Below are positions 592 to 16,982 of a DNA stretch of 50,674 nucleotides, in pieces (positions within the stretch are counted from its first letter, which is position 1; every line of letters starts with the position of its first letter). A model generated the notes under the pieces. The model did no database searches, was not told the DNA's origin, and saw only the letters and a program-made list of their open reading frames with translations. A program made the position numbers and the translations under genes. The DNA is from Candidatus Zambryskiibacteriota bacterium. GTDB taxonomy: Bacteria > Patescibacteriota > Minisyncoccia > Phycocordibacterales > DATDWN01. The stretch covers positions 1 to 50,674 of the forward strand of contig JAHFOB010000005.1 in assembly GCA_023267045.1 (NCBI GenBank), written 5' to 3'.

Positions 592-3500
592 ATCTACGAG
601 TGGTACTCTTCCTAATCTAAATATTAATAAACCATCAGGAACAGTAAGTGTTACGGGTGATTTAAGTATAAATGGTTTTACTTTGTCGAGTGGAACATTT
701 ACCTCAACTTCAGGAACTCTAAGTGTTGGGGGTAACTGGACACATACTGCCGGAGGAACATTTAATCATAATAATGGAACAGTTGTTGTATCAGATGGTG
801 GTTCTTCAAATTATCCCACGTATGATTTTGCTAGTTCTGAAACATTTTATAATTTTACCACTAACAGAAATTCTTACGGTGAGACATATATTGCCTCTGG
901 AGATACTCTGATTGTTTTAGGGACTTTCACTCTAAACTACGGATCTGTCTATACGGGGACCATTGAAGTCAGAGGAAATGTAGTAGTTGGTTCGACTGCA
1001 CGTTCTGGCGGCACAGCCGCAATTAACTTCACCGGCTCTAATGCTCAAACTCTCACCTTAACTTCCGGTGGAGTGATGCCCACAGGTCTCATCACCATAA
1101 ACAAAACAAATTCCACAGACACCGTCACACTCGCTTCGAACGTCACTCTTGGTGGAGCGCTGACAGTTACTAAAGGAGTTTTTGATCAGGGCGCAACGTA
1201 CAACTTAACAACCGGCGGAGCAGTTACTGTTTCTGCAAACGGAACATGGAGTAACACTGGAACGGGCGATGTAACACTTGCAGGAAATGTTTCAAACTCT
1301 GGAATAATTATTTTGGATGCAAACGGAAATGGTTGTGGCGGAAATGACGATATTGTTTTGACTTCAACAGCGTCAGCGCAGAGAACGTGGTCAGGTGCCG
1401 GAACATTTATTTTGGAAGACCTTGCCGTTTCGTGGATGGCGGGAACAGAAACAACATACAGTTCGACAAACAGTGGTAACAACAGCAACTGGACTTTTTC
1501 TGCTGGATGTTTGCTCACAGTTTCTGGCACTGTTTATTCTGATGAAGGTTCAACAGCGCTGACCACAACTCCAACAGTTCGTGTAAAAGTAAACGGCAGT
1601 GGAACATATTCTGGCACAGCAAATGTTTCTGGAGTTTACACTGTTCCGGGTGTCACTGTCGCTTCGGCCGGAGATGTTGTGACGACCTATCTCGACGGTG
1701 CCACAGAAAAATCCGTGACAGTCACTCGCGCAGTAGACGCGACGTCAAATATTTCCGGATTAAATTTATATAAAAATTATGTAATCGTTCGTCACGAAGA
1801 TTCTGGACCGACGACAAACACAAATCTCGATCAATATGATTCTGGAAATGACAGTGATATCCAGTTTACTGTGACCTCCGGAGCGTTAACAGTTGCAAGT
1901 GGCAACACACTGTATATTTGGACAGGAAAAACATTTACACCGGGAGGAGACGCTACAACTCCAGGATTAAAAATTTTAGGAACATACAACAACTCGTCAA
2001 GTAATCCGAGCCTTACAATAACAGGCAACCTAGCAATAAATTCTGGCGGAACATTTACAAAAGGAACTGCCACAACGACATTTTACGGTAAGACAACTCA
2101 AAGTTGGACAGACGGAAATGTGACTGCACAGGATTTGGGTCAAGTTCAAGTATCAGGTGGTTTCTCATACTCTCACTCTATAACTCTTGATCATACCAAA
2201 GCAGGAAGTTCAGACTCAACAAACTTTCCTGTATTGATCGATACAACAAATGCTTCAACAGCAGTCAAGAATAGCTTGAAATCAACAGGCAATGGCGGGA
2301 ATGTTCAAAGTGCCAATGGCTATGATATTTATTTTTATTCTGATTCAGCTCTAACCACTAGACTACCAGCCGAACGGGTTACCTATGACGCTACTACAGG
2401 TATCGGCGAATGGTGGGTTAATGTTCCCACAGTTTCTCATACTTCCGACACAGTAATTTATATTGCTTACGGAGATTCAGGTATAAGTTCTGACCCGAAC
2501 TCTGATGGGACGTATGGAACTACGTCTACGTGGGATAGTAATTTTAAATCAGTTTATCATTTACCAAATGGTTCTAGTTTAAGCGTTGCCGACTCCACAG
2601 GTAATGACAACGGCACAAATAATGGAGTAGCGGCAACAACTGGACAAATTGATGGTGGTGGATTGTGGGCGGAGAATGATAGTTTTTCTGGTTCGGTGAC
2701 AAGTAATTCTACAAATACAACTTTGGAAGCATGGGTATATAGAACTGGGGATGGCGGGGCTAGCGTAGGAAGAATATTGCAGGATAATTTTGGCGTAGCA
2801 CTTATTCTTAACAATGGCTCCGATTATATGTTTCGGCGCGCTTGGAGTGGTAGTAATGCTCAATGGGCTGTCGCCAGACCATCAATCAATGTTTGGCACC
2901 ATGTAGTCGTTACTTATAATAGTTCGTCTGCAACCAATGACCCAATAATATATATAGATGGCACTGCACAGAGCTTGACTGTGGATACCAACTCATCTGG
3001 TTCTGTAAATAGTTTTAGTGCAGGATATACTTTTGGGAACAATCTTTCAGGCGGAGGACGTGTTTGGTCAGGGAGTTTGGACGAGTTTAGAATTTCAGAT
3101 AGTATTCGAAGTGCCGACTGGATTCTTACAGAATACAACAATCAACTCATCCCAGATAAAAATGCTGATGCTGGTGGGTTTTATACGATGGGGAGTGAGA
3201 CGAGTGTAAATCCAACCACTCTCAATCTCGGCTCATCCGTCAAAGCCACTTCAGTTCAAATTGATTCATCACAAACTTTGTCGGCAAATGGTTCAAATAC
3301 ATTGTCGCTCACAGGAAACGGTTCGGCGGTTTTTGTAAAAAACGGAACATTCACGCCGTCGACCGGAACAGTGTCTTTTGATTCTTCTGCAACAACTGGT
3401 ACAACAGTTCCAGCGATTACGTATTATAATTTAACTTTGAACAAAGGAAATAATTATTCTTACTCTCGTTCTATCACTATTAACCACACAAAAGTTCCAA

Positions 3501-6439
3501 ACACAGACCAGACAAACTTTCCTGTGTTAGTTGATTTGACTGACAGTAATCTCCAAGCAAATGCTCTTTCAAATGGTAACGATATTTTGTTTACCTCATC
3601 TGATGGCACGACGAAAATCCCTTACGAAAGAGAAATATACACCACTTCAACAGGAAGATTGACCGCATGGGTCAAAGTACCGACAGTTGCCACAGCTTCA
3701 GATACTGTTATTTATATGTACTACGGTAATGCTGGTGCAAGTGACCAGCAAGATGCAGTGAATACTTGGGATTCTAACTACGTTCTGGTCATGCACGGAA
3801 GTCGAGACAGTTCTACTGTAGATGTTACGGATTCAACAGGAGTTAATAACGGCACAAATACTTCAACTACTGCAGGAGCTGGGCAAATTGGCGGAGCAAT
3901 CGTTTTATCTGGTAGCTCACAATATGTAACCGTGCCTGATTCAGCTAGTCTTCGTGTGACTGGGGCTTTAACTTTACAAGCATGGGTGAAACCTACAGAT
4001 AGAGCAAACTACAACGGGATTATATCGAAGACAGACGGCACAAACCCGACTTTCCCGAACACATGGGATATGTTTTTGTTCGCAGGTGGCGGGGCGTCTA
4101 CAGTACTTCGTGGTAATGGCAGTGGTGGTTCTGGCACAGATTACACCAGTAATGGTCAAGTAACTGGCCCGGCAACTGGTTTGTGGAGTGCTATTACAGC
4201 AACCGTGAGCGGTTCTGCTGGTGGCGGTGTCTCCGCAGACTTTATTATTTACGCAAATGGTTCGAGTATTAGTAATACCAGCCACTCCTATTCTCATACA
4301 GCAGGCACAGGTGGCACTGGAGCAGTAGGTATTGGAACACGTAACGACCACGTTACCATGTTCAAAGGTTCGATGGACGAAGTAAGAATTTCAAATATTG
4401 CTCGTGGTGCTGACTGGATTGCTACAGAATACAACAATCAATCAGCAACAAGCACATTTTACACAATAGGCAGTGAAACTGGGGCAAATAATACTTTCAC
4501 CGCTTCTTCTGGAACTATGACTGTTGGTGGAGCGCTTAATGTTACAAACGGAACTTTTGATTTGAATACAAACGATCCGACAACAGCTGTAACAGGAGCA
4601 GTAACAATCGGCGGAACTTTGCTTGCCTCAAACTCGGCAAACTTTTCTTTCGGTGGAAACTTCACAAACAACGGAACGTTTACACACAACTCTGGCACAG
4701 TTACTTTTTCTCCACCAACTCCGGCAACTGTAACTGTCAGCGGTTCGTCAGTCAGCAATTTCTATAATTTCAGCGCAACGACGCAGGGCAGTGGTTTGAA
4801 GTTTAAAGCTTCGCAAAATACAGGTTTTGCCGGAGCAGTAACTATGACAGGCGCCGATGGAAATCCGATTTACATATCATCCGACACGGCAGGAAATCAG
4901 TGGACACTAAATTTGTCCGGTACAGCAACACTAAGTTATGTCACTGTTCGTGACTCCGGTTGTGCTGGCGGAACTGGAAATGTCACACTGACCGCCACAA
5001 GTTTGAACGAAGGAAATAACGGAACGTGTTGGTTGTTTATTTCGTTCGGCAATTCTGGTAACGGTGCCTCTCTCGGCGGTGGTTCCGGTGGTGGCACTCC
5101 AGTTTCCGGCGGTGGTTCCGGTGGCGGAGGAGTGACAGAAAGTACAGACATAACATTTGATGCAACAGCGAATTCGTTCGGTTCTGGATCAACACGATCT
5201 ATAAATTTTACGACTGGTAGTGGATCAGACAGAATTCTCGTGGTTGGAATTGTTAGTAGAGATGGAACAGATTCTAATCGTCCGATAACATCGGTAACTT
5301 ACAATAATGTGGCATTAACACAAGTTCGTTCGGATAACAATGATTCTTATGATTTGACATCTGATCTTTGGTATCTTGTTAATCCGCCATCAGGCACATA
5401 TTCGCTTGTTGTAAACTGGACCGGCAGTGTCGGGTCATCTCTTATCTCGGCGGTTTCTTACACTGGAGTTGACCAATCCTCACCAATTGGTGCAAGCGCT
5501 GGTACGACAGGGAATTCGGGGACGACACTTGTAGACATTACAACCAATACGGCAAGATCAATGCTTGTTGATACAATCTATCATATTGCTTCAACACTCT
5601 CTCCTGCTAATAGTCAAACGGTACGTGCTAAGCTCAATGGGGGAGATTGTGTAGGAATGAGTGACAAATTGGCTATTGAATCCGGAGCAACAACTATGTC
5701 ATGGAACACTGGCAGTACTGGGGCGGACTATTGGGAGTCATCTGTGGTGGCACTGAATCCAGTCAATACCGACTCGGGCAGTTCTGGCAGTAGTCATCCA
5801 TACGGTATTACCTTTGATGCCGCAACAAATTCAGGGTTTGGTTCCGGAGCTTCACGCTCTATGAACTTCACGGTAGGGACTAACCAAAATCGTATTCTCA
5901 TAGTTGGCGCCGTTAGTAGAAATGGAACAAATTCTAATCGTCCGGTAACATCGGTGACTTATAATAATGTAGCATTGACCAAAATTCGAGCAGACAATAA
6001 TGATTCTACGAGTCTGACTTCAGAATTATGGTATCTGGTCAATCCAGCATCCGGAACTAATTCTATAGTCGTGAACTGGACTGGAAGTGTTGGCTCGTCC
6101 GTGATTATGGCGGTATCTTACAATAATGTAGATCAAACTTCACCGATCGACGCTCAAAATGGTGGCATAACTTCTTCTCTAAGCATTACAACTGTCAATG
6201 GTAATGATCTACTTGTTGATTCACTGTATGATTGGATCACCGGTATTGCCGCTGGTAGTGATCAGGTCACAAGAAATGTGATTAACGGTGGTGATAGTGT
6301 TGGTCAGAGCGATAAAGAGGCAATAAACCCTGGCACGGCGACGATGTATTGGGATGGTGCTCAGAATAGAATTTATTCAGTCATCGCTCTAAAGCAAACA
6401 GCAGCAAGTCAGGGCGGAGGGGGCGGAGCAACTCCATAA
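2..6439 (+). CDS. Giant secreted/surface protein, 5'-partial: Gly/Thr/Ser/Asn-rich beta-repeats, two DUF2341 + LamG/concanavalin-like modules, two C-terminal repeats
   Basis: The frame of ORF 98..6439 is open back to base 2, so the true start is upstream of the window. It has two 'NFPVL..D...DI.F...E...W.V.VP...DTVIY.YG' blocks, each followed by a LamG-like 'G.LDE.RIS...R.ADWI.TEYNNQ', and ends GGGGGATP. Confidence 0.85.
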   Translation, partial: SNGAINTGTIEAQGNVIVGASAQGGNGTISFLVAGDQTITSSGGSTAKLNINKASGTVNVTGDLGITGFTLASSGTGAFTSTSGTLTVNGNTTWTHTAGGTFNHNNGTIVSSSFNGSLTWDVATNETLNNLTITTSSGGGTTISSGDTLIVLGTLTHSNGAINTGTIEAQGNVIVGASAQGGNGTISFLVAGDQTITSTSGTLPNLNINKPSGTVSVTGDLSINGFTLSSGTFTSTSGTLSVGGNWTHTAGGTFNHNNGTVVVSDGGSSNYPTYDFASSETFYNFTTNRNSYGETYIASGDTLIVLGTFTLNYGSVYTGTIEVRGNVVVGSTARSGGTAAINFTGSNAQTLTLTSGGVMPTGLITINKTNSTDTVTLASNVTLGGALTVTKGVFDQGATYNLTTGGAVTVSANGTWSNTGTGDVTLAGNVSNSGIIILDANGNGCGGNDDIVLTSTASAQRTWSGAGTFILEDLAVSWMAGTETTYSSTNSGNNSNWTFSAGCLLTVSGTVYSDEGSTALTTTPTVRVKVNGSGTYSGTANVSGVYTVPGVTVASAGDVVTTYLDGATEKSVTVTRAVDATSNISGLNLYKNYVIVRHEDSGPTTNTNLDQYDSGNDSDIQFTVTSGALTVASGNTLYIWTGKTFTPGGDATTPGLKILGTYNNSSSNPSLTITGNLAINSGGTFTKGTATTTFYGKTTQSWTDGNVTAQDLGQVQVSGGFSYSHSITLDHTKAGSSDSTNFPVLIDTTNASTAVKNSLKSTGNGGNVQSANGYDIYFYSDSALTTRLPAERVTYDATTGIGEWWVNVPTVSHTSDTVIYIAYGDSGISSDPNSDGTYGTTSTWDSNFKSVYHLPNGSSLSVADSTGNDNGTNNGVAATTGQIDGGGLWAENDSFSGSVTSNSTNTTLEAWVYRTGDGGASVGRILQDNFGVALILNNGSDYMFRRAWSGSNAQWAVARPSINVWHHVVVTYNSSSATNDPIIYIDGTAQSLTVDTNSSGSVNSFSAGYTFGNNLSGGGRVWSGSLDEFRISDSIRSADWILTEYNNQLIPDKNADAGGFYTMGSETSVNPTTLNLGSSVKATSVQIDSSQTLSANGSNTLSLTGNGSAVFVKNGTFTPSTGTVSFDSSATTGTTVPAITYYNLTLNKGNNYSYSRSITINHTKVPNTDQTNFPVLVDLTDSNLQANALSNGNDILFTSSDGTTKIPYEREIYTTSTGRLTAWVKVPTVATASDTVIYMYYGNAGASDQQDAVNTWDSNYVLVMHGSRDSSTVDVTDSTGVNNGTNTSTTAGAGQIGGAIVLSGSSQYVTVPDSASLRVTGALTLQAWVKPTDRANYNGIISKTDGTNPTFPNTWDMFLFAGGGASTVLRGNGSGGSGTDYTSNGQVTGPATGLWSAITATVSGSAGGGVSADFIIYANGSSISNTSHSYSHTAGTGGTGAVGIGTRNDHVTMFKGSMDEVRISNIARGADWIATEYNNQSATSTFYTIGSETGANNTFTASSGTMTVGGALNVTNGTFDLNTNDPTTAVTGAVTIGGTLLASNSANFSFGGNFTNNGTFTHNSGTVTFSPPTPATVTVSGSSVSNFYNFSATTQGSGLKFKASQNTGFAGAVTMTGADGNPIYISSDTAGNQWTLNLSGTATLSYVTVRDSGCAGGTGNVTLTATSLNEGNNGTCWLFISFGNSGNGASLGGGSGGGTPVSGGGSGGGGVTESTDITFDATANSFGSGSTRSINFTTGSGSDRILVVGIVSRDGTDSNRPITSVTYNNVALTQVRSDNNDSYDLTSDLWYLVNPPSGTYSLVVNWTGSVGSSLISAVSYTGVDQSSPIGASAGTTGNSGTTLVDITTNTARSMLVDTIYHIASTLSPANSQTVRAKLNGGDCVGMSDKLAIESGATTMSWNTGSTGADYWESSVVALNPVNTDSGSSGSSHPYGITFDAATNSGFGSGASRSMNFTVGTNQNRILIVGAVSRNGTNSNRPVTSVTYNNVALTKIRADNNDSTSLTSELWYLVNPASGTNSIVVNWTGSVGSSVIMAVSYNNVDQTSPIDAQNGGITSSLSITTVNGNDLLVDSLYDWITGIAAGSDQVTRNVINGGDSVGQSDKEAINPGTATMYWDGAQNRIYSVIALKQTAASQGGGGGATP

Positions 6440-6466
6440 TAGTGCTGACTTGTGACAAAACCCACT

Positions 6467-6554
6467 ATGTCAAAGAGACACTTTGACATGATGTTTTCAT
6501 TGGGAAAGTTGATAATAATAGCTCATGTCAAAGTGTCTCTTTGACATGAGCTAT
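6467..6554. repeat. REP-like palindrome doublet downstream of the RAYT gene (copies at 6467-6489 and 6518-6554, opposite orientation)
   Basis: ATGTCAAAG-AGACA-CTTTGACAT and its reverse complement. The second copy extends to 16-bp arms and encodes the transposase C-terminus HVKETL-stop. Confidence 0.9.
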
Positions 6555-7163
6555 GGATGACAAGGCTAGGGTTTCTTTTTCAAAATCTTTATCATTCCCA
6601 AACATTGGTTTTATCAGATCGAGGTTTGTTAGTAGAAATTTTCTATTAGACACAAAGTCATTGTAACTACTCCATTTATATTTTTCTGGGCTCCCCACTA
6701 ATTTATCTTTAACAGAGTTCATATGTATGTACGCTGAAGTCCACATTAGTTGAGAATCTGTTTCTATGTTCACAGCTTTGAAACAATCTTGAAAGATATG
6801 GCCAACCCGTTTGTATTTGTTGTTTATATACTTAGAATAACTAGCACAAACTTTAGAAATTAATTTTGAAATTGATATGTCGCCACGTTGTTCTATGAGC
6901 AGATGAAAATGATTTGGCATTAAACAAAAAGAATGAATCTTAAAAAGTTTCTTACCTTCGGTTTCTATTCTTATTCTAGAATAGGGGAGATTGATCATTT
7001 TTTCATTTTTGATTTCTTCCTGTTCGAACCCCATTGCTAGAGCTATTCTAAAAAGAAAAGCTTTGTAGTCTTGTTCCTCGAGAAATACTTTTTGTTTATT
7101 ATTTCCTCTATTGTATATATGAGCGACAGTTCCTTTTGCAAAATTTTTATAGTCTCTGTTCAT
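6528..7163 (-). mobile_element. REP-associated tyrosine (HUH/Y1) transposase, RAYT/IS200-like
   Basis: Motifs HIYNRGNNKQKVF, FCLMPNHFHLLI (HUH), GHIFQDCFK, YIHMNSV, YKWSSY; flanked by four palindromes. Confidence 0.9.
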
Positions 7164-7176
7164 ACTTCTATACTAC

Positions 7177-7263
7177 ATGTCAAAGAGACACTTTGACAAC
7201 CTTGACTAACTTTCAAAATGTTGGCTGTAAACATATGTCAAAGTGTCTCTTTGACATATGTTT
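7177..7263. repeat. REP-like palindrome doublet upstream of the RAYT gene (copies at 7177-7198 and 7229-7263)
   Basis: Same TGTCAAAG-AGACA-CTTTGACA core in both orientations; the second copy has extended arms aaacatatg...catatgttt. Confidence 0.9.
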
Positions 7264-7421
7264 TTTAATCTGTATTTTATAAGGTGAAGGTCATCAACTT
7301 TATGAGATCGTGATACAATTTATTGGATGAGTAAAATTTCAAGTTTTGAAAATAAAATATCGAGGCGAAACCTTGGTGTTGTAGGTTTGCAAATTGTTAG
7401 TTTGTGTTGTATTGTGTAGAA

Positions 7422-7908
7422 GTTATGCTGGATAGTTGCTGGGAGAGACTCTCGAGTCTTTTCTGGAGGAAAGTCCGAACATCAGGCTCGAGGTAACTTG
7501 AGCAAGGGTAGCGGGTAACGCCCGTCGACAGTAATGTTAGAGGTGCGAGCAGTGACGCTTGAGGCGAAAGCTAAAAGTGCCCAGTAAGAATAGAATTCGC
7601 AAGAGATCAATTTTTACGGGGTAAATTCAATAGAAATATTGGAGTGAAACGGCAAAATCCTTACTTTGATGCAAGGCCGTGCTTATGCATCTCACAGAGG
7701 TGAGATGCAGTTATCAAGTTTGAAAGTTTAAAGTTAAAAGTAGATGCGCTAAAAATAAAATTGCGCATTCACTTGATAACTTGATAACTTTTTACTTTTA
7801 ACTGCACTGAACTTCCGTGAGGTGCATAGGAGTGCCGCTTGACCCCGAGAGTAATTTCGGGGCTAGATAAATAACTATCTACAACAGAATTCGGCTTATA
7901 GGCATAAT
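7422..7908 (+). ncRNA. rnpB: RNase P RNA, enlarged by an internal AT-rich insertion
   Basis: Conserved GAGGAAAGTCCG, GTGAAACGG, GCAAG and ACAGAATTCGGCTTAT; P1 pairing gttatgc/gcataat; P2 gatagtt/aactatc. Confidence 0.92.
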
Positions 7909-7913
7909 AAAAT

Positions 7914-7949
7914 GAAAATCGTCACCGTAAAAGGTGGCGATTTTCTTTT
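7914..7949 (+). terminator. Intrinsic terminator after rnpB
   Basis: gaaaatcgtcacc-gtaaaa-ggtggcgattttc followed by tttt. Confidence 0.75.
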
Positions 7950-8015
7950 GTGTTGATAGTAACTTCAGATTTCTATATAATGTAAAAACAAATTAACTAA
8001 ACAACTAATAAAAAT

Positions 8016-10406
8016 ATGGAAGAAACACAGATTGGTTTAGGAAGCAAAGTGAAGATGTTTTTTGATAAGTTTTTGTTTTGGATTTTGATTGGTTTGAGTT
8101 TTCTCGTGCCAATATTTTTCTTGCCATTTTCTTTTGTCTCAATTCAGTTCGGCACAAGTTTACTTTTTGCCACTGGAGCGATTATTTCTATTCTTGTTTA
8201 TATTATCTCTGGGCTTTTTTCAGGTTCTGTTGATTTACCAAAACCAGGCAAATATGTTTTGGGGTTTACTCTCCTTGTGCCTGTGGTTTACACTCTAGCT
8301 GGAGTTGCAAACGGATTTTCTAGAATGTCTTTTTTCGGTTACACATTTGATCCAAGTACAGTCGGTTTTGTTTTCCTCTCCTTTGCATATATGTTTTTGA
8401 TTTCAGTTTTGTTCAAAAACAAAAACAGGATTTTATTTTCGTACATGGCTTTTATTCTATCGTCAATAATTTTCGCTGTTTTTCTATTGAGTAGACTGAT
8501 TTTAGGAGCAAAGTTTCTGTCTCTCGGTACTTTTACTGATCTTACAACTACAACCATAGGTAGTTGGAATAATGTCAGTATATTTTTCGGAATAGGACTT
8601 ATTCTGTCACTTCTGACATATCAAATGCTAAATGTTAGTAGATTGATGAAGATTATTCTTACTATAACATCTCTAGTTTCTCTATTTTTCTTAGCTCTTG
8701 TAAATTTCAGTGTTGTTTGGACTACACTCTCTATAACAGCTTTTCTTTTCATACTATATAGTTTATTTAACTCGGGAGGAGCTTCTTTTTCTAGTTTAAC
8801 TTTCAAACAAAAACTTTATCGTATCCCACTTTATCCTTCTATTGTTTTTGTCGTTTCCATCACTTTTATTGTGTTCGGTAGTTCATTCGGAAACTATTTA
8901 TCAAACACTTTAAAAATTTCTAACGTAGAAGTTAGACCGTCGCTTTCTGTGACGATGAATATTGCTCGCAATACAATAAAGTCACAACCGCTTTTTGGTT
9001 CTGGCCCAAACACTTTTGTTAACGAGTGGCTTTTGTACAGACCAGACGAAATTACAACTTCAGCTTTCTGGAATACAGATTTTACAAACGGTATCGGTCT
9101 TATACCGACTTTTGCTGTAACCACTGGTCTTCTAGGGGTTTTGTCTTGGCTTGTTTTTCTAGGGTTCTACGCTTATCTTGGTGTTAAATCGATTTTCACT
9201 AGAATTGAAGATTCTTTCGTCAAATATCTTTTGACCTCGTCATTTTTTGTCTCTCTCTATTTGTGGGTGATGACATTTGTTTATGTTCCTAGCACTGTTA
9301 TATTGATTTTAACTTTCTTTTTTACTGGTCTGTTTTTTGCTTCAGTTTATTCATCTGGAATGATTTCCGTTGTGTCAAAATCTTTTTCTGGAAATCCAAA
9401 ATCAGGATTTGTTTCTTCTCTAATTATGATAGTTTTGCTCGTTTCTGGCGCATGGCTTGCTTACGGTATTTTCCAGAACTCAAAATCTCTATGGTATTTC
9501 CAAAAAAGCTCGTATGCTCTAAATACCGATAAAAATATAACTACATCGGAAAATTATATGGTTCAAGCTCTAAATACCGTGCCAAACGACGTTTATTTCC
9601 GAGCACTTTCACAGATCGAAATTTTGAAACTTAATGCTATTTTGTCACAGGACATAAAACAGATAAAACCAGAAGAAATACAAAAACAGTTTCAAGCAAC
9701 TTTATCTGACGCAATAAAAGCCGGCCTTTCTGCAAAAGAGGCGGACTCTTCAAATTATCTTAACTGGATTTCGTTAGGTGATGTTTATGGGTCTGTTTCT
9801 TTACCACAACTAAAAGTTGATGGTGCTTACGAGAGTGCTCAACTGGCATACTCTGAAGCTCTTCATAGAAATCCAAAAAATCCGGCAATTCTTATGCTTT
9901 TTGCTAGACTCGCCGTCACTCGAGAGGATTTGAAATCAGCCCAGTCTTATGCTGAACAGGCGATTCAAGCTAAAAACAATTATCTCGACGCCTACTTCCT
10001 CTTATCACAAATAGAAGTGGCTGACAAAAATATAAATGGAGCTATCAGTTCTGTCACTTCTGCATCTGTTATTGACCCGACAAACCCAGCCATTTTCTTT
10101 CAGTTAGGACTTTTGAAATACAATATCTCTGATTTCAAAGGCGCGATAGAGGCGCTAGAGAAAGCAACAAACATGACACCAGACTATGCTAACGCAAAAT
10201 ATTTCCTCGGGCTCTCATATGAGGCAACCGGTCAGCATCAAAAAGCTATAAAACAATTTCAAGATTTGAAAGTGACAAATCCAGATAGCACTGAAGTAGA
10301 TGCTATTTTGAATAATCTACTTGCCGGCAAATCTATTTTTGCCAATAGTAGCAATTCAAAACCAGAAAAAGCTGATAAGTTACCAGTCAAAGAAAAAGTT
10401 CAATAA
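8016..10406 (+). CDS. Polytopic membrane protein, O-antigen-ligase/Wzy-like with C-terminal TPRs
   Basis: Many hydrophobic helices, a PLFGSGPNTF motif and C-terminal TPR-like repeats; adjacent to murJ. Confidence 0.7.
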   Translation: MEETQIGLGSKVKMFFDKFLFWILIGLSFLVPIFFLPFSFVSIQFGTSLLFATGAIISILVYIISGLFSGSVDLPKPGKYVLGFTLLVPVVYTLAGVANGFSRMSFFGYTFDPSTVGFVFLSFAYMFLISVLFKNKNRILFSYMAFILSSIIFAVFLLSRLILGAKFLSLGTFTDLTTTTIGSWNNVSIFFGIGLILSLLTYQMLNVSRLMKIILTITSLVSLFFLALVNFSVVWTTLSITAFLFILYSLFNSGGASFSSLTFKQKLYRIPLYPSIVFVVSITFIVFGSSFGNYLSNTLKISNVEVRPSLSVTMNIARNTIKSQPLFGSGPNTFVNEWLLYRPDEITTSAFWNTDFTNGIGLIPTFAVTTGLLGVLSWLVFLGFYAYLGVKSIFTRIEDSFVKYLLTSSFFVSLYLWVMTFVYVPSTVILILTFFFTGLFFASVYSSGMISVVSKSFSGNPKSGFVSSLIMIVLLVSGAWLAYGIFQNSKSLWYFQKSSYALNTDKNITTSENYMVQALNTVPNDVYFRALSQIEILKLNAILSQDIKQIKPEEIQKQFQATLSDAIKAGLSAKEADSSNYLNWISLGDVYGSVSLPQLKVDGAYESAQLAYSEALHRNPKNPAILMLFARLAVTREDLKSAQSYAEQAIQAKNNYLDAYFLLSQIEVADKNINGAISSVTSASVIDPTNPAIFFQLGLLKYNISDFKGAIEALEKATNMTPDYANAKYFLGLSYEATGQHQKAIKQFQDLKVTNPDSTEVDAILNNLLAGKSIFANSSNSKPEKADKLPVKEKVQ

Positions 10407-10415
10407 TACAAAATA

Positions 10416-12092
10416 ATGGTAAAACGTTTTCTTAATCTGATAAACAGAGAAGTAAACGGCCTTCATCAGGCCGCTTATCTTTTGGGATTTTTTGCTATTT
10501 GCTCGCAAGTTTTGGCTTTATTTCGAGATAGGATTTTAGCTTCACAGTTTGGCGCAGGAAACACACTAGACTTATATTATTCAGCGTTTAGGATTCCAGA
10601 TATTTTGTTTGCCACAGTTGCTTCTATCGTTTCTGTTTCTGTTCTCATACCTTTTTTGATTGAGCGATTTGAGAAAAGTGATGAAGATGCCAAAGAGTTT
10701 ATTGATATGATTTTTTCTTTCTTTTTCTGTTTTATGTTGGTGGTTGGAGTTTTGGCTTATATTACAGCACCATATTTCATGAAACTACTTTTCCCAGTTT
10801 TTGCTAAATCCACATCATTTCCAGATCTTATTCATCTGACCAGAATTCTTTTATTGTCACCAATTTTTCTTGGCTTCTCAAATCTCTTAGCTAGCATCAC
10901 TCAAATAAACAGACGTTTTTTGGTCTACGCCGTTTCTCCCGTTGTTTACAACGTTGGCATTATAATAGGGATCACCTTACTATATCCAGTTTTTGGCCTT
11001 TCTGGTCTCGGTATGGGTGTTGTTTTGGGGGCGTTCCTTCATTTTGCTATCCAGATTCCGTTCATCGTTTCTGTTGGAATGTTTCCAAAACTTCGCTTTC
11101 CAATAAAATTTAGTTTTATAAAAAAAGTCATTTACACATCCCTTCCTCGCACTATCACCGTTTCTTCAAACGAAATTGCTGAATTATTTCTCATTTCTTT
11201 CGCTTCTTTTTTCGCTCCTGGTTCTGTTGCCGTCTTCAACTTTTCTTTTAACCTGCAAGCCGTACCTTTTAGTATTATCGGTGTTAGCTACTCTCTGGCC
11301 GCTTTTCCAACTTTGACAAAACTTTTCGGAAATAATAAGGACGAGTTTATCGAGCAAATGATAAATTCCGCTCGACATGTTATTTTCTGGTCAGTGCCAG
11401 TGACAGTTTTGTTTATCGTTTTACGTGCTCAGATTGTCAGAACTATTTTAGGAACAGGGAGGTTTAATTGGGATGATACACGACTAACGGCTGCTGCACT
11501 GGCTTTATTTACTATCTCTCTTGTTGCTCAAAACTTAGTTTCTCTCTTTGTCCGTTCATACTATTCTCAAGGCAAAACCAAAACTCCGCTTTTTATGAAC
11601 ATATTTTCCGCTTTAATTATTATTTTTGGCAGTTATTATTTGGCTCAACTTTTCCAAGCAAATTTATTTTTCAGAAACTTTATGGAGTCGATCTTGAAGG
11701 TTTCTGGTATAAACGGCACAGTTGTTCTAATGCTTCCTCTGGGTTTCTCTATTGGGGTTATTATAAATCTTATTATTCACTGGGTCGGTTTCAATAAACA
11801 TTTCCCGACATTTTCCTCTCGAGTGTTGCGAACTTTGTTTCAGGTAACTGGGGCATCTGTTATTATGGGTTATGTTACGTATATTTGTCTAAATATTTTT
11901 TCCACGGTCTTTAACCTCAATACTTTATCTGGAGTATTTCTGCAAGGATTTGTCTCGGGGGTTGTAGGTATTATTTTTGCTATGGTCATATTATTTTTAC
12001 TAAAAAGCAAAGAGTTGCAGGAAGTTTGGGCTACGCTTCACAAGAAGATTTGGAAATCAGACATCGTTGGGCCAGACCCAGAACTGCAATAA
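10416..12092 (+). CDS. murJ: Lipid II flippase MurJ/MviN
   Basis: SQVLALFRDRILASQFGAG...LDLYYSAFRIPD, VVYNVGII and RSYYSQGKTKTP in a multi-TM protein. Confidence 0.9.
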   Translation: MVKRFLNLINREVNGLHQAAYLLGFFAICSQVLALFRDRILASQFGAGNTLDLYYSAFRIPDILFATVASIVSVSVLIPFLIERFEKSDEDAKEFIDMIFSFFFCFMLVVGVLAYITAPYFMKLLFPVFAKSTSFPDLIHLTRILLLSPIFLGFSNLLASITQINRRFLVYAVSPVVYNVGIIIGITLLYPVFGLSGLGMGVVLGAFLHFAIQIPFIVSVGMFPKLRFPIKFSFIKKVIYTSLPRTITVSSNEIAELFLISFASFFAPGSVAVFNFSFNLQAVPFSIIGVSYSLAAFPTLTKLFGNNKDEFIEQMINSARHVIFWSVPVTVLFIVLRAQIVRTILGTGRFNWDDTRLTAAALALFTISLVAQNLVSLFVRSYYSQGKTKTPLFMNIFSALIIIFGSYYLAQLFQANLFFRNFMESILKVSGINGTVVLMLPLGFSIGVIINLIIHWVGFNKHFPTFSSRVLRTLFQVTGASVIMGYVTYICLNIFSTVFNLNTLSGVFLQGFVSGVVGIIFAMVILFLLKSKELQEVWATLHKKIWKSDIVGPDPELQ

Positions 12093-12129
12093 TTTTTGAA
12101 ATAGTCACTTTTGTGCTTTAATGTAGCCC

Positions 12130-14472
12130 ATGGATAATATTAGAAATTTCAGCATCATTGCTCATATTGATCACGGTAAATCTACCTTGGCTGACAGAAT
12201 GCTTGAGATCACAGGCACAATAGAAGCCCGTAAAATGCAGGATCAAGTACTGGACTCAATGGAACTTGAGCGTGAGAGGGGTATTACCATAAAAATGCAA
12301 CCAGTTAGGATGGTTTACCATCCTCGCAGACTAGATTCAGACTTAACGCAGACTGACTCAGACACCGGGCAAAATGACTTTCTATATAAAGATTTAACTT
12401 ATAAAATACGAGGTGCTTGTTTTGCTGTCAGAAAATCATTAGGGTTAGGTCACAAAGAAATAGTGTATCAAAAAGCTTTGGAAATTGAGTTTAAAAATAT
12501 TGGCTTGAATTTTGAGAGTCAAAAAATTTTGAATGTTCTTTATCAAGATCAAAAAGTAGGAATATATACTCCCGATTTTATTATTGAAGATAAAATTATA
12601 ATTGAACTTAAATCTTTGCCTGAAATTGGCAAACCACAAGAAGAACAGTTGTGGAGCTATATTAAAGGATCTAAATATAAACTTGCACTTCTAATCAATT
12701 TTGGGAGTAAGGATGTAGAATTTAAGAGAATTGTTTATGATAGTCTGCGTCAGTCTGCGTCTAGTCTGCGACAGTCAGCGCAGATTCAGGATGAATACAT
12801 CCTGAATCTGATTGACACTCCTGGGCATATAGACTTTTCCTATGAAGTTTCTCGCGCACTCAAAGCCGTTGAGGGTTCTATTTTGCTCGTTGACTCAACA
12901 CAAGGTGTGCAAGCACAAACTCTAACAACTCTCGGAATGGCTCGCGAGTCAGGGCTGACGATTATTCCCGTGCTTTCGAAAATAGATTCGAGCTTGGCAC
13001 GTGTCTCTGAAGTTAAGCAGGAAGTCATCAAACTTTTAGGATGCAAAGAAGAAGATATCATGGAAACTTCTGGCAGAACTGGAAAAGGTGTTGAGGCACT
13101 TTTAAATGCAATTATTGAAAAAGTACCTCCGCCGACCAGCATAGACTTAACACAGACTCACGCAGAATTAAATTCAGCGAAGTCTGCGTCTAGTCTGCCT
13201 CTGTCTGCGAGTGCCTTCAGGGCACTAGTTTTTGATTTCAAATACTCAACTCATCGTGGAGTTATCGTTTTCGTGCGGGTAATGTCCGGAGAAGTAAAAA
13301 GAAACACACCTTTGGTTTTTAAAATTGCTAAAGAAACTTTCACCTCCATCGAAGTTGGAATTTTTTCACCGGGCGAAGTGGCGGTGGATAAACTTTCTGC
13401 AGGAGAAATTGGCTATATTGTAACGGGCATAAAACAACCCGGAATCGCTTCTGTTGGAGACACGGTAGCAACTATAGAAGACAAGCTCTCGCCACTTGCT
13501 GGGTATATGTCTCCCAGACCTGTTGTCTGGGCGTCGATTTATCCTGAAAGTCAGGATGATTTCACTGTTTTAAAGCAGGCACTTGGCAAACTAAAACTTT
13601 CTGACTCTTCATACACATTTGAGGAAGAATCTTCGGGCTCTTTGGGGAGGGGATTTCGCTGTGGTTTTCTCGGTATGCTCCACTTGGAAATTATTTCAGA
13701 GCGTTTACACAGAGAATTTAACTTGGAGTTGGTGGTGACCATGCCGACGATTACATATGAAGTGACCCCGAAGGAAAGTCGAGCACAACTTCCTACGGGG
13801 CAGGCTTATAAAAATAAATCATATATGGTGTATTCTCCTGCAAATTTTCCTGACGAAGGAACTTATTCTGAAATTCGTGAGCCGTGGGCAAATGTGGTTA
13901 TTATTACACCTGTAAAATATCTCTCAAATCTCATGCCACTTTTGTATGATCACGAAGCAGAAATAGGGGATTCAGAAAACTTTGGAGAAGACAGAACTAG
14001 ACTGACCATGAAAATGCCTCTTCGAGAGCTGATGCGAAACTTTTTTGATAAATTAAAAAGTGTCACCAGTGGTTTCGGTTCCATTTCATATGAAATAGAA
14101 GGAATGAGAAAAGCTGACGTTGTTCGGCTAGATATTTTAGTCGCCGACGAAATATTGCCAGCTTTTTCTCGAGTTGTTTCTCGTCGTGTGGTTGAGCAAG
14201 AAGCAGAGCAAGCTGTGGAAAAGCTTCACGCTATTTTGCCTCGCCAAATGTTTGTGATGAAAATCCAAGGCAAAGCTCTTGGCAGAATAATCTCAAGTCG
14301 AACAGTTTCAGCTTTTAGTAAAGATGTGACGCAACACATGTATGGTGGAGATATTACTCGCAAAATGAAGTTGCGCGAAAAGCAAAAGAAAGGAAAAAAG
14401 AAAATGAAAGAGAGAGGAATGGGGAAGGTTAATATTCCACAGGACGTCTTTCTAAAGATGATGAGAAGTTAA
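12130..14472 (+). CDS. lepA: Elongation factor 4 (LepA) with three in-frame insertions, including a GxxExxY nuclease domain
   Basis: IRNFSIIAHIDHGKSTLADR, ERERGITIK, LIDTPGHIDF, GFRCGFLGMLH, YGGDITRKMKL; 780 aa versus about 600 aa typical. Confidence 0.97.
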   Translation: MDNIRNFSIIAHIDHGKSTLADRMLEITGTIEARKMQDQVLDSMELERERGITIKMQPVRMVYHPRRLDSDLTQTDSDTGQNDFLYKDLTYKIRGACFAVRKSLGLGHKEIVYQKALEIEFKNIGLNFESQKILNVLYQDQKVGIYTPDFIIEDKIIIELKSLPEIGKPQEEQLWSYIKGSKYKLALLINFGSKDVEFKRIVYDSLRQSASSLRQSAQIQDEYILNLIDTPGHIDFSYEVSRALKAVEGSILLVDSTQGVQAQTLTTLGMARESGLTIIPVLSKIDSSLARVSEVKQEVIKLLGCKEEDIMETSGRTGKGVEALLNAIIEKVPPPTSIDLTQTHAELNSAKSASSLPLSASAFRALVFDFKYSTHRGVIVFVRVMSGEVKRNTPLVFKIAKETFTSIEVGIFSPGEVAVDKLSAGEIGYIVTGIKQPGIASVGDTVATIEDKLSPLAGYMSPRPVVWASIYPESQDDFTVLKQALGKLKLSDSSYTFEEESSGSLGRGFRCGFLGMLHLEIISERLHREFNLELVVTMPTITYEVTPKESRAQLPTGQAYKNKSYMVYSPANFPDEGTYSEIREPWANVVIITPVKYLSNLMPLLYDHEAEIGDSENFGEDRTRLTMKMPLRELMRNFFDKLKSVTSGFGSISYEIEGMRKADVVRLDILVADEILPAFSRVVSRRVVEQEAEQAVEKLHAILPRQMFVMKIQGKALGRIISSRTVSAFSKDVTQHMYGGDITRKMKLREKQKKGKKKMKERGMGKVNIPQDVFLKMMRS
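12325..12780 (+). mobile_element. In-frame cassette inside lepA: GxxExxY (PDDEXK_3-like) nuclease bounded by 39-bp inverted arrays of CGCAGACT units
   Basis: Motifs GHKEIVY and PDFIIEDKIIIELK. Left arm 12325-12363 has 4 x CAGAC; right arm 12742-12780 has 4 x AGTCWGCG. Length 456 bp = 152 codons. Confidence 0.85.
13140..13209. repeat. Nuclease-less palindromic copy of the same element, in frame in lepA
   Basis: catagact-taa-cacagact-ca-cgcagaatt / aaattcagcg-a-agtctgcg-tct-agtctgcc-tct-gtctgcg; encodes IDLTQTHAELNSAKSASSLPLSA. Confidence 0.8.
13764..13805. repeat. Short hairpin insertion in lepA (ACCCC...ACGGGGCARG family)
   Basis: ccccgaaggaa/ttcctacgggg stem followed by cagg; extra peptide TPKESRAQLPTGQA. 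Confidence 0.7.
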
Positions 14473-15968: not shown

Positions 15969-16982
15969 TTACAACAAAGTCTTAGGTGTTAATCCCAAAT
16001 GCTCATAGCCTGAAGCAGTTACCGTTCTTCCGCGCGGAGTACGATCAAGAAATCCAAGTTGTAATAAATATGGTTCGTTGAACTCCTCAATTGTTGCTTG
16101 TTCCTCTGATATTGCTGCGGCCAAGGTATTTAATCCAACAGGTCCACCACCAAATTTATTTATTATCGTATGCAAAATATCTCTATCTGCAGGTGTTAGT
16201 CCTTGTTCGTCAATACCGAGAAGTTTTAAAGCTTCTGCCACAGAGTTTTTGGTCATCTCTGTTTTGTGAACCTGGGCATAGTCACGACAACGTTTCAAAA
16301 AGTAGTTTGCTGTACGCGGAGTAAAGCGAGATCTTTTTGAAATCTCCTGACCTGCACTTTTTTCTAGATCGATTCCTAAAATTTTAGCAGATCGAGTAAT
16401 TATTTTTTGTATTTCGTCGTTGGTATAAAACTCCAGTTTGAAAATTCCTCCAGAAAAGCGTGAGCGGAGAGGGGATGAAATCATGGCGATTCGTGTCGTT
16501 GCGCCGATCAGTGTAAATGGTGGAAGTTCGAGTTGTATTGTTCGAGCACTCGGTCCTTTTCCGATAATAATATCGAGTGAGCCAGATTCCATGGCGGGAT
16601 ATAAAACTTCCTCAATAGTTTTATTAAGGCGATGAATTTCATCAATAAAAAGTATGTCTCCTGGTGAGAGATTTGTCAGTATTGACGCTAAATCACCAAT
16701 TTTCTCTATTGCAGGACCAGAAGTCACCTTCATTTGGGCTTTTATTTCTTTGGCAATGAGATGAGCAAGGGTCGTTTTTCCAAGTCCAGGCGGACCGTAG
16801 AAAAGTATGTGCTCTGGTGGGTGATTTCGCTCTTTTGCCGCGGTAAGTAGGATCTGCAAGTTCTTTTTTACCATGTTTTGACCTATATAATCCTCCCATT
16901 TTGAAGGTCGCAAAGTGGTGTCCAAGAATAATTCTTCTTTTTCCGATACCCCATTGTCTTTGTTAGCCTGTTTTTTCTTCAT
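15969..16982 (-). CDS. ruvB: Holliday junction branch-migration helicase RuvB
   Basis: LRP..W..YIGQ, GPPGLGKTT, ILFIDEIHRL, GATTR, GGPVGL, RTPRGR. Confidence 0.97.
   Translation of the reverse strand: MKKKQANKDNGVSEKEELFLDTTLRPSKWEDYIGQNMVKKNLQILLTAAKERNHPPEHILFYGPPGLGKTTLAHLIAKEIKAQMKVTSGPAIEKIGDLASILTNLSPGDILFIDEIHRLNKTIEEVLYPAMESGSLDIIIGKGPSARTIQLELPPFTLIGATTRIAMISSPLRSRFSGGIFKLEFYTNDEIQKIITRSAKILGIDLEKSAGQEISKRSRFTPRTANYFLKRCRDYAQVHKTEMTKNSVAEALKLLGIDEQGLTPADRDILHTIINKFGGGPVGLNTLAAAISEEQATIEEFNEPYLLQLGFLDRTPRGRTVTASGYEHLGLTPKTLL

Follow-up and report, generated by a model that had tools for sequence, protein, structure and literature searches.

Gene-less hairpin element read in frame within lepA of a Candidatus Zambryskiibacteriota bacterium, a probable member of an insertion family with GxxExxY nuclease cassettes

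The window (the whole stretch of DNA that was analysed) is 50,674 nucleotides long and corresponds to contig JAHFOB010000005.1 of a Candidatus Zambryskiibacteriota genome (GCA_023267045.1, hereafter G000). The lepA reading frame in this window hosts two inserts, a nuclease cassette and, downstream of it, a gene-less hairpin element. Their features are given below in the order of their positions in the window.

12130..14472, + strand: lepA (EF4) reading frame of 780 aa, host of the nuclease cassette and of the gene-less element (ORF; Pfam; PDB EF4 matches).
12307..12324, no strand: left junction palindrome of the cassette, AGGATGGT-tt-ACCATCCT (host R-M-V codons and their inverted copy).
12323..12364, no strand: left arm of the nuclease cassette, four units (arm profile and unit-array searches).
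12388..12732, + strand: GxxExxY / PDDEXK_3 nuclease domain, in frame in the G domain of LepA (Pfam PF13366, 5e-32; TIGR04256, 2.7e-35).
12741..12781, no strand: right arm of the nuclease cassette, four units (arm profile and unit-array searches).
12781..12810, no strand: right junction palindrome of the cassette, CAGATTCAGGATG-aata-CATCCTGAATCTG (inverted repeat of 13 nt, 100%; control P 0.0006).
13129..13169, no strand: left arm of the gene-less element, three clear units, ATAGACT, CACAGACT and CGCAGAA (nhmmer E 1.4e-6; leave-out profile 13130-13168).
13166..13176, no strand: apical mini-palindrome and loop, GAATTAAATTC (sequence, fold).
13172..13211, no strand: right arm of the gene-less element, four units, CAGCG, AGTCTGCG, AGTCTGCC and GTCTGCG (nhmmer E 3.6e-9; leave-out profile).
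13210..13226, no strand: junction mini-palindrome adjoining the gene-less element, AGTGCC-ttcag-GGCACT (6-bp stem).

The lepA product carries the Pfam domains GTP_EFTU, EFG_III, EFG_C and LepA_C and is matched by PDB EF4 structures (E 1e-148). The nuclease domain of the cassette lacks a start codon at the point where the domain begins. The second half of the palindrome at 12781-12810 corresponds to the host Y-I-L-N-L codons. PF13366 is found at only two places in this genome, 12388-12732 and C12:3064-3387. A table row of PMC3424549 gives no assigned function for the PDDEXK_3 family.

The gene-less element comprises about 85 bases. It consists of two inverted 40-nt arms made of 10-11-nt CGCAGACT-type units and separated by 11 nt only; the GxxExxY nuclease cargo is absent. 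A first-pass annotation had described a palindrome of about 70 bp at 13140..13209; the units that it named are present, and the arm profile widens the span to 13129-13211. The outermost unit of the left arm overlaps the host PPP/T codons, four units being the norm in the arm family. The predicted RNA fold of 13130-13220 reaches -30.3 kcal/mol, a stability equalled by none of 200 dinucleotide shuffles (z -3.5). The second half of the mini-palindrome at 13210-13226 corresponds to the host R-A-L codons. Its 6-bp stem is equalled by 5.7% of control windows (control P 0.057), so that this palindrome is weak evidence by itself; the left junction has none. By reading, no direct repeat flanks the two arms, whose ends are fuzzy.

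The arms belong to the same family as those of the upstream cassette, as had been proposed. The repeat search matches right arm 13181-13209 with cassette right arm 12752-12780 (86% over 29 nt) and left arm 13143-13166 with cassette left arm 12339-12362 (88% over 24 nt). With a leave-out profile (family arms minus the arms of both lepA elements), the two arms are still retrieved from the whole 750-kb genome, at 13173-13210 (E 2.8e-7) and 13130-13168 (E 4.7e-4). The window has 8 occurrences of the unit AGTCTGCG (0.86 expected), 6 of which fall within lepA. The gene-less element lies about 350 bp from the right arm of the cassette, close to the 360 bp first given.

In the lepA frame, the gene-less element encodes SIDLTQTHAELNSAKSASSLPLSAS. 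This is the only one of its three frames without stops; by reading, the other two meet TAG or TAA. About 19 aa are added at the linker between the G domain and domain II, in agreement with the in-frame addition of about 20 aa claimed initially. From VPPP to LVFDF there are 39 aa in this genome; of 28 other lepA genes, 21 have 19-21 aa at this place and the remaining 7 have 24-31 aa. In a pairwise alignment to Thermus EF4 (5imq_B), about 20 residues at query 337-361 are unmatched. To judge from the open frame, the insert peptide would be read through as part of LepA. It is predicted to be disordered (pLDDT below 50 at LepA 341-359, flanking blocks 72 and 80) in a whole-LepA structure prediction from 29 sequences, whose mean pLDDT is 63.7 and which was used for the linker alone. 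The predicted cassette part (68-218) is uninformative because it is covered by this sequence alone.

The scan for further copies suggested by the first-pass annotation reveals 8 loci in G000, none of them intergenic, with 14 significant arms in total (profile search); unit arrays are absent from five shuffled genomes. Four of the loci lie in 23S rRNA. Of the others, lepA has two (the GxxExxY-nuclease cassette and the gene-less copy), gatB has one gene-less copy and uvrC has one single arm. The copy at C7:36252-36360 takes the place of helix 45 of 23S rRNA, the classical intervening-sequence site. The fourth 23S element is not assigned to a helix, the MAFFT alignment to E. coli 23S being unreliable there. 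All four protein-embedded copies of the genome (lepA twice, gatB, uvrC) lie in open host frames, and the copies inside genes of relatives likewise preserve the frame, as anticipated. For the CGCAGAC-type arm family, G000 has four gene-less hairpins and one single arm against one nuclease-bearing copy. The other GxxExxY gene of G000 is flanked by arms of another unit, ACGAAT, which has gene-less copies of its own.

The arm pattern is also found in 3 of 40 congeners. PF13366 is present in 4 of 4 genus genomes with the arm pattern and in 7 of 37 others; this association is not an independent test because the genomes are kin. CGCAGAC-unit arms are hosted by both 16S and 23S rRNA. In relatives, the protein genes that contain such arms in an open frame are gatB (two arms), a class I aaRS gene and a UvrD-like helicase gene. 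A further cassette, whose arms are missed by the profile, is found in recG of a relative. In the presence/absence comparison proposed at first, orthologues lack the insert. The lepA linker insert is specific to this genome (1 of 29 lepA genes), and none of the 28 others carries a full cassette at the linker site. The gatB loop is empty in 25 of 30 genomes of the genus; it carries an empty hairpin in G000 and a full nuclease cassette in congener G047. The lepA G-domain turn, like the gatB loop, is occupied in more than one species. The in-frame nucleases of lepA (G000, G019), gatB (G047) and recG (G014) cluster together (support 89/87), apart from seven free-standing nuclease genes (support 99/97). 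The existence of one in-frame lineage in lepA, gatB and recG is counted in favour of the mobility of the cassette. An arm-less footprint in lepA of congener G018 and the single arm in uvrC of G000 are decay products in place.

The hairpin is unchanged in contigs from two runs of one study. The sequencing runs found to contain the stretch include no RNA run. No hairpin-free contig of high identity is found among the contigs of three DNA runs of one study, and no polymorphism is seen; in the X3 contig (about 88% identity), 13137-13203 is replaced by 73 other letters. In a wider collection (596 Gb), a pattern of 15 specified bases matches at least 120 loci, and 14 of 120 matches listed have arrays of at least three units. 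Most of these matches are thus chance ones; 15 specified bases are too few for 596 Gb, and the matches say little about the distribution of the family.

The junction palindromes are inverted duplications of flanking host sequence. In G000, a perfect palindrome of at least 8 bp adjoins the arm at 8 of 15 junctions, and the corresponding share of 20,000 control windows is 0.9%; the palindromes of the sister copies measure 8-13 bp. At the lepA G-domain site, a palindrome is found in 5 of 7 alleles with an insertion and in 0 of 22 alleles without. Pairs that are wobble pairs on one strand only were counted in the arms: the coding copies have 11 on the antisense strand and 5 on the sense strand, the rRNA copies 5 and 14, respectively, these counts being small and dependent on our alignment of the repeated units. 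They are counted in favour of a constraint that acts on coding copies at the level of DNA rather than RNA.

The interval 13129-13226 is interpreted as a gene-less member of a selfish hairpin-armed insertion family that entered lepA as DNA (probability about 0.7). In its complete form, an element of this family would open with a junction mini-palindrome, followed by a first arm of four 10-11-nt CGCAGAC-type units. The cargo, typically a GxxExxY PD-(D/E)XK nuclease, would come next, and the arm in inverted orientation and another junction mini-palindrome would close the element. The putative nuclease activity would recognise the repeated units, or the cruciform that they form, and make the break that admits the element. 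Joining through folded-back (hairpin) DNA ends could then leave an inverted copy of the host flank at each junction. In lepA, the entry point would be the surface linker joining the G domain and domain II. The element may survive there because one of its three frames has no stops; this frame would give a short Ser/Thr/Ala/Leu-rich peptide, tolerated as a floppy loop. The related copies in 23S rRNA extend its helices, among them helix 45, at which inserts of this kind are called intervening sequences. Since decay in place is seen elsewhere (single arm of uvrC, lepA footprint of G018), the nuclease gene may have been lost in place by deletion between the arms; this is at least as likely as, and probably slightly likelier than, the arrival of an already gene-less element with the help of the cassette.

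The two lepA inserts had been proposed to be an autonomous/non-autonomous (MITE-like) pair whose arms are the mobile cis-elements. This proposal is supported in part: the full and empty forms are real, and the movement of empty copies in trans is hypothetical. A role of the arms as cognate cis-elements fits the two nuclease lineages, each of which lies between arms of its own unit; the nuclease as mobiliser is putative. True MITE behaviour, i.e. a gene-less hairpin copied into the linker after mobilization in trans by the nuclease 350 bp upstream, is possible but considered unlikely. It would account for the excess of gene-less hairpins and single arm over the nuclease-bearing copy, for the lack of any full cassette at the linker in the 28 other lepA genes and for the arm unit that tracks the nuclease lineage. 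However, the arms of the gene-less lepA element are only 50-78% identical to other arms in the alignment, and its loop and those of other copies look unrelated by reading. The decay products in uvrC and in lepA of G018, and the single gatB site that has both a full and an empty form, also point away from copying in trans. G000 has no near-identical copy of the gene-less lepA element and no copy burst, hence no sign of its recent movement.

The other readings have far lower probabilities. A host-beneficial functional RNA element of the lepA message (RNase III site, interdomain pause site or attenuator) could explain the stable fold (z -3.5); the genome encodes RNase III, and the mini-hairpin together with the host T-run (13210-13235) fits a terminator consensus. 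It is nevertheless very improbable: the element is in only 1 of 29 lepA genes, rRNA and unrelated genes share its arms, the mismatches of coding copies have no sense-strand wobble bias (5 against 11), and no Rfam family exceeds its threshold in 12000-13500 (best 25.6 bits, cut-off 45). Production of LepA without the insert, through removal after transcription or translation (intron, intervening sequence or intein), recalls the sister copies at the intervening-sequence site of 23S rRNA, helix 45, and the excision of intervening sequences by RNase III in other bacteria (PMC4990558). According to PMC11270868, however, rRNA fragments are not rejoined by RNase III. Besides, removal would make frame-keeping and stop avoidance needless, yet all protein-embedded copies have both; by reading, the peptide of about 20 aa lacks the terminal His-Asn and the Cys/Ser/Thr nucleophile pair of inteins, and 12000-13500 has no Rfam intron match. 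Little credence is thus given to such a removal. A chance low-complexity palindrome in a linker whose length already varies from 19 to 31 aa among orthologues has a negligible probability, given the leave-out profile E values (2.8e-7 and 4.7e-4), the 0 of 200 shuffles that fold equally well and the 0 unit arrays in five shuffled genomes.

The interpretation of 13129-13226 as a gene-less family member leads to a broader and more tentative proposal, held at somewhat less than even odds. Hairpin-armed GxxExxY cassettes might be a distinct, undescribed class of mobile elements that explains both rRNA intervening sequences and in-frame palindromic inserts in essential genes. Their nuclease would read the units or the cruciform and produce hairpin-ended breaks; because the break ends fold into hairpins, insertions would be flanked by inverted host duplications, and this junction signature could persist as a footprint after element loss. 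The in-frame nuclease lineage would have lost its start codon and be expressed solely as a domain of the host protein. In the literature searched, neither armed GxxExxY cassettes nor their in-frame copies are described. The main text of PMC11270868, which deals with rRNA insertions in CPR bacteria, has 0 occurrences of 'inverted repeat', 'palindrom' and 'pddexk'.

The origin and spread of rRNA intervening sequences (IVSs) were listed as unclear in 2016 (PMC4990558). Since the same arms flank a nuclease gene in lepA, form gene-less hairpins in lepA and gatB and replace helix 45, IVSs would be tied to a nuclease-bearing selfish element. The family also offers substrates for biochemistry, namely the unit arrays, the junction palindromes and the gatB and lepA sites in their empty form. 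In annotation, an odd short loop in a conserved protein of an ultra-small bacterium may represent the translated remains of such an element, recognisable by arm units and junction palindromes.

23S rRNA IVSs sit in helix 9, 25 or 45, and a sister copy of the lepA element replaces the last of these. As here, IVSs such as that of Coxiella burnetii helix 45 have a long stem formed by terminal inverted repeats, occur as ORF-bearing and ORF-less forms and have a sporadic distribution that suggests horizontal spread (PMC4990558). In the same 2016 Coxiella paper, 'remnant of transposition' and 'mobile element whose ORF serves mobility' are hypotheses on their mobility (PMC4990558). Unlike IVSs, the gene-less lepA copy is located in a protein-coding gene and read in frame, as are three further copies. 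The ORF of the present family specifies a GxxExxY PD-(D/E)XK nuclease instead of the S23p / 23S_rRNA_IVP protein; its arms are arrays of 10-11-nt units, and its junctions have inverted duplications of host sequence. Rickettsia palindromic elements (RPEs) are palindromes found in frame in unrelated essential genes and translated, as is presumed here (PMC10969869). RPEs measure about 150 bp, and the passages of PMC10969869 used here mention no nuclease gene for them; the present family also occurs in 16S and 23S rRNA and has arms of tandem units.

MITEs are likewise short palindromes whose terminal inverted repeats are common to a longer coding element of the same genome. The present cargo (PDDEXK_3 / TIGR04256) differs in belonging to no known transposase family. 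The flanks have inverted duplications, whereas a direct target-site duplication is not evident (fuzzy arm ends). The copies are few (8 loci), diverged and, within G000, restricted to conserved genes. Homing endonuclease genes of introns and inteins differ by RNA or protein splicing, of which the present sequences give no indication, so that the insert would stay in the product. The two systems share a nuclease gene within an insert in conserved genes, the filling of the same site in different species (gatB loop, lepA G-domain turn) and a single nuclease lineage across several host genes.

Two foreign stretches are hosted by lepA.

lepA and its inserts (positions in the window).
12130-14472, + strand: lepA, 780 aa.
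~12307-12810: nuclease cassette in lepA; GxxExxY / PDDEXK_3 domain between two 40-nt inverted arms.
12307-12324 and 12781-12810: junction palindromes of the cassette, made of host codons and their inverted copy (right end: 13 bp, YILNL codons).
13129-13211: gene-less element in lepA; arms of the cassette kind, opposed across an 11-nt apex.

The cassette domain matches PF13366 (5e-32) and TIGR04256 (2.7e-35) and lies, frame kept, in the beta2-beta3 turn of the LepA G domain. Tandem 10-11-nt units sharing the core CGCAGAC make up the arms. In a repeat search, the two arms of the gene-less element match those of the cassette at 86% identity across 29 nt and 88% across 24 nt; its RNA fold reaches -30.3 kcal/mol, a stability found in 0/200 shuffles; and both arms are recovered from the 750-kb genome (E 2.8e-7 and 4.7e-4) by a profile built without the lepA arms. 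The palindrome reported by the first-pass annotation is real and is kin to the cassette; it belongs to an interesting family.

The annotation had also claimed that about 20 aa are added at the linker between the G domain and domain II, and comparison with orthologues bears this out. The VPPP-LVFDF spacing is 39 aa here vs 19-31 aa in 28 other lepA genes of the genus and order (19-21 aa, 21/28; 24 aa, 3/28; 27 aa, 2/28; 29 aa and 31 aa, one each; the cut lepA of locus L028 was excluded). Alignment with Thermus EF4 (5imq_B) leaves a gap of ~20 residues at query positions 337-361, between the last G-domain helix and the first domain II strand. In an AlphaFold model (29-sequence alignment), pLDDT drops below 50 over residues 341-359, from 72 and 80 in the blocks on either side, so the extra peptide looks like a floppy surface loop in the model. 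The frame is kept: the one in use is the only stop-free frame of the element, the other two meeting TAG or TAA. At 13210-13235, a junction mini-hairpin followed by a host T-run (LVFDF codons) fits the intrinsic-terminator consensus, inside lepA. In a ~88%-alike contig from the third run of one study, 73 different letters replace the 67 of 13137-13203; a different filler is therefore present there in a related population. Other GC-rich hairpin inserts are found at the lepA linker of the congeners G014 (L021) and G018 (L019), both carriers of the arm family; one of them contains CCGCCGAAGC-gg-GCTTCGGCGG, a perfect palindrome of 10 bp. The linker MFE is -35.0 and -28.9 in these two and -40.6 in G000 (the genome of the window), whereas all remaining 26 fall short of -20.

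The genome scan for palindromic arrays proposed in the first pass gave 11 CGCAGAC-unit arrays in G000 vs 0 in five shuffled genomes. Significant arms (nhmmer) number 14 and are spread over eight loci, none of which (0/8) lies between genes: the lepA cassette, the gene-less lepA copy, a gatB hairpin, a single arm in uvrC and four copies in 23S rRNA.

Loci outside the window (contig:positions in G000).
C22:16842-16939: gene-less hairpin in gatB; reads RTGADLTQTIAEKEDYFSLRSSALSLRESATS.
L002 (C22), 16817-16845: junction of the gatB hairpin; 13 bp, TKVEV codons.
C1:44820-44862: single arm in uvrC; CGCAGAC-arm profile match.
C7:39688-40263: fourth 23S copy; ~500 nt of cargo between arms.

Alignment with E. 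coli 23S places the short rRNA copies, three in number, after positions ~270, ~652 and ~1157; helix 45, the classical intervening-sequence site, is replaced by the last of these. The Coxiella intervening sequence is placed in helix 45 in PMC4990558. The cargo of the fourth copy includes an Rfam group I intron match (52 bits, threshold 50). The 23S rRNA gene (L001 = C7:32000-45000, 2451-10804) is ~8.4 kb long and has two such matches, one being that enclosed by the fourth armed element; further inserts relative to E. coli are located after 129-174, 540-552, 1581, 1708 and 1767. Two 5S rRNA matches follow ~480 nt apart (L001 11048-11153, 74.1 bits; 11526-11635, weaker, 42.9 bits).

A two-unit pattern is found in 4/41 genomes of the genus (G000, G014, G018, G047; reversed control, 0/41) and a stricter three-unit pattern in 3/401 genomes drawn from the phylum (control, 0/401). 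In G018, a class I aminoacyl-tRNA synthetase and a UvrD-like helicase have arms within their open frames; G047 carries arms in 16S rRNA and, twice, within the gatB open frame. A single G014 arm, not placed further, falls in an open frame of 107 aa where a contig ends. In the G018 synthetase (L158, contig C7 of that genome), a His_Phos_1 histidine-phosphatase domain is inserted at aa 475-559, closely following the single in-frame arm.

Full and empty forms occupy one site. The gatB loop NISVS-FGTKVE is empty in 25/30 genomes of the genus, contains the gene-less hairpin in G000 and a complete nuclease cassette in G047, and is longer by 6 aa in G016 and G019 and by 4 aa in G018. The C-terminal half of gatB is 64% identical to that of G000 in G047 vs 71% in G006. 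G006 is thus nearer to G000 in gatB than G047 is, and it is argued from this that a single insertion inherited by both G000 and G047 would require many precise losses. At the lepA G-domain turn, 7/29 genes have an insert, and a second lepA fragment of G019 has a nuclease cassette at this turn. One of the seven inserts is a gene-less hairpin whose arms are of CGCAGA type; it belongs to G037, a member of a different family in the order. The 25-30-aa inserts of G016, G007 and G027 (L011, L012, L025) at this turn, the site of the cassette, are AT-rich repeat peptides (FPISNSQFPIN..., NSKSEVPNKSQIQNS...) with junction palindromes and a different internal sequence, which suggests further arm families.

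PF13366 gives 15 matches in 11/41 genomes of the genus; tblastn recovered 14/15 loci, and two fragments <85 aa were dropped from the tree (n = 12). A single nuclease lineage is distributed across three host genes: the in-frame nucleases (lepA of G000 and G019, gatB of G047, recG of G014) form one group (support 89/87), parted by a 99/97 branch from seven genes that stand alone (127-137 aa); another free-standing gene, on a long branch, adjoins the group. Identity to the G000 copy is 52-67% among the four. On inspection of the sequences, every one retains the GxxExxY and D...ExK motifs and lacks an ATG where the domain begins; the domains appear to be produced solely within their host proteins. 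PF13366 is present in 4/4 genomes with the arm pattern vs 7/37 others, a hint only, because the former are kin.

The arm unit tracks the nuclease lineage, as the second GxxExxY gene of G000 illustrates.

ACGAAT-arm loci of G000.
C12:3040-3420 (L003 2996-3430): second GxxExxY gene, with nusG and rplK on either side.
C3:788-903, C7:19825-19891 and C31:2378-2452: gene-less ACGAAT hairpins; unit arrays.

This gene is flanked by inverted arms of another unit, ACGAAT, of which 13 arrays are found in G000 vs 0 in five shuffles; the gene-less hairpins are mostly intergenic and adjoin gene starts. That each of the two nuclease lineages has an arm unit and gene-less copies of its own is the best support for the earlier proposal that the arms are cis-elements of the nuclease.

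Junction palindromes are tied to insertion. A perfect 8-13-bp palindrome adjoins 8/15 arm ends in G000 vs 0.9% of 20,000 control windows. Those of the rRNA copies are mutually similar mini-hairpins (GTCAATGC-nnn-GCATTGAC); those of the coding copies consist of host codons and the inverted copy of these codons, as also in lepA of G019 (15 bp) and recG of G014 (9 bp). Among alleles of the lepA G-domain turn, 5/7 with an insert and 0/22 without one have such a palindrome, of 14 bp at most. In the G018 allele (L019), a 13-bp perfect host-codon palindrome without arms, CCGTCAGGATGGT-ac-ACCATCCTGACGG, may be the footprint of a lost element. The right junction of the gene-less lepA element has a 6-bp stem, within chance (5.7%), and the left none.

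In the arm alignment, rRNA copies have 14 sense-RNA wobble mismatches vs 5 that pair only in the antisense strand; coding copies have 5 vs 11. These small numbers suggest that the rRNA copies preserve pairing as RNA and that the lepA and gatB hairpins would be a DNA-level legacy. An RNase III gene is present in G000; no RNA sequencing run was found that contains the stretch. The nuclease might bind the units, spaced by about one helical turn, or their cruciform, and then make a break. The broken ends would fold back or become hairpin-capped, and their off-centre opening would leave inverted flank copies at the junctions, comparable to the palindromic nucleotides that arise at hairpin-opened ends. 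Insertions in essential genes would survive only if in frame, stop-free and on the protein surface. The cassette and the gene-less copy had been read as an autonomous/non-autonomous, MITE-like pair. This reading is right on kinship and on the arms; autonomous and non-autonomous mobility is unproven, and loss of the gene in place is rated slightly above movement in trans for the gene-less copy.

Literature searches, supplements apart, turned up neither armed GxxExxY cassettes nor in-frame copies of them. LAGLIDADG, GIY-YIG and 23S_rRNA_IVP ORFs are reported in a survey of CPR rRNA insertions (PMC11270868), whose text, supplements apart, lacks the terms 'inverted repeat', 'palindrom' and 'pddexk'; PDDEXK_3 is tabulated with unknown function in PMC3424549. 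The closest described systems are 23S rRNA intervening sequences (PMC4990558), Rickettsia palindromic elements (PMC10969869), MITEs and homing endonuclease genes.
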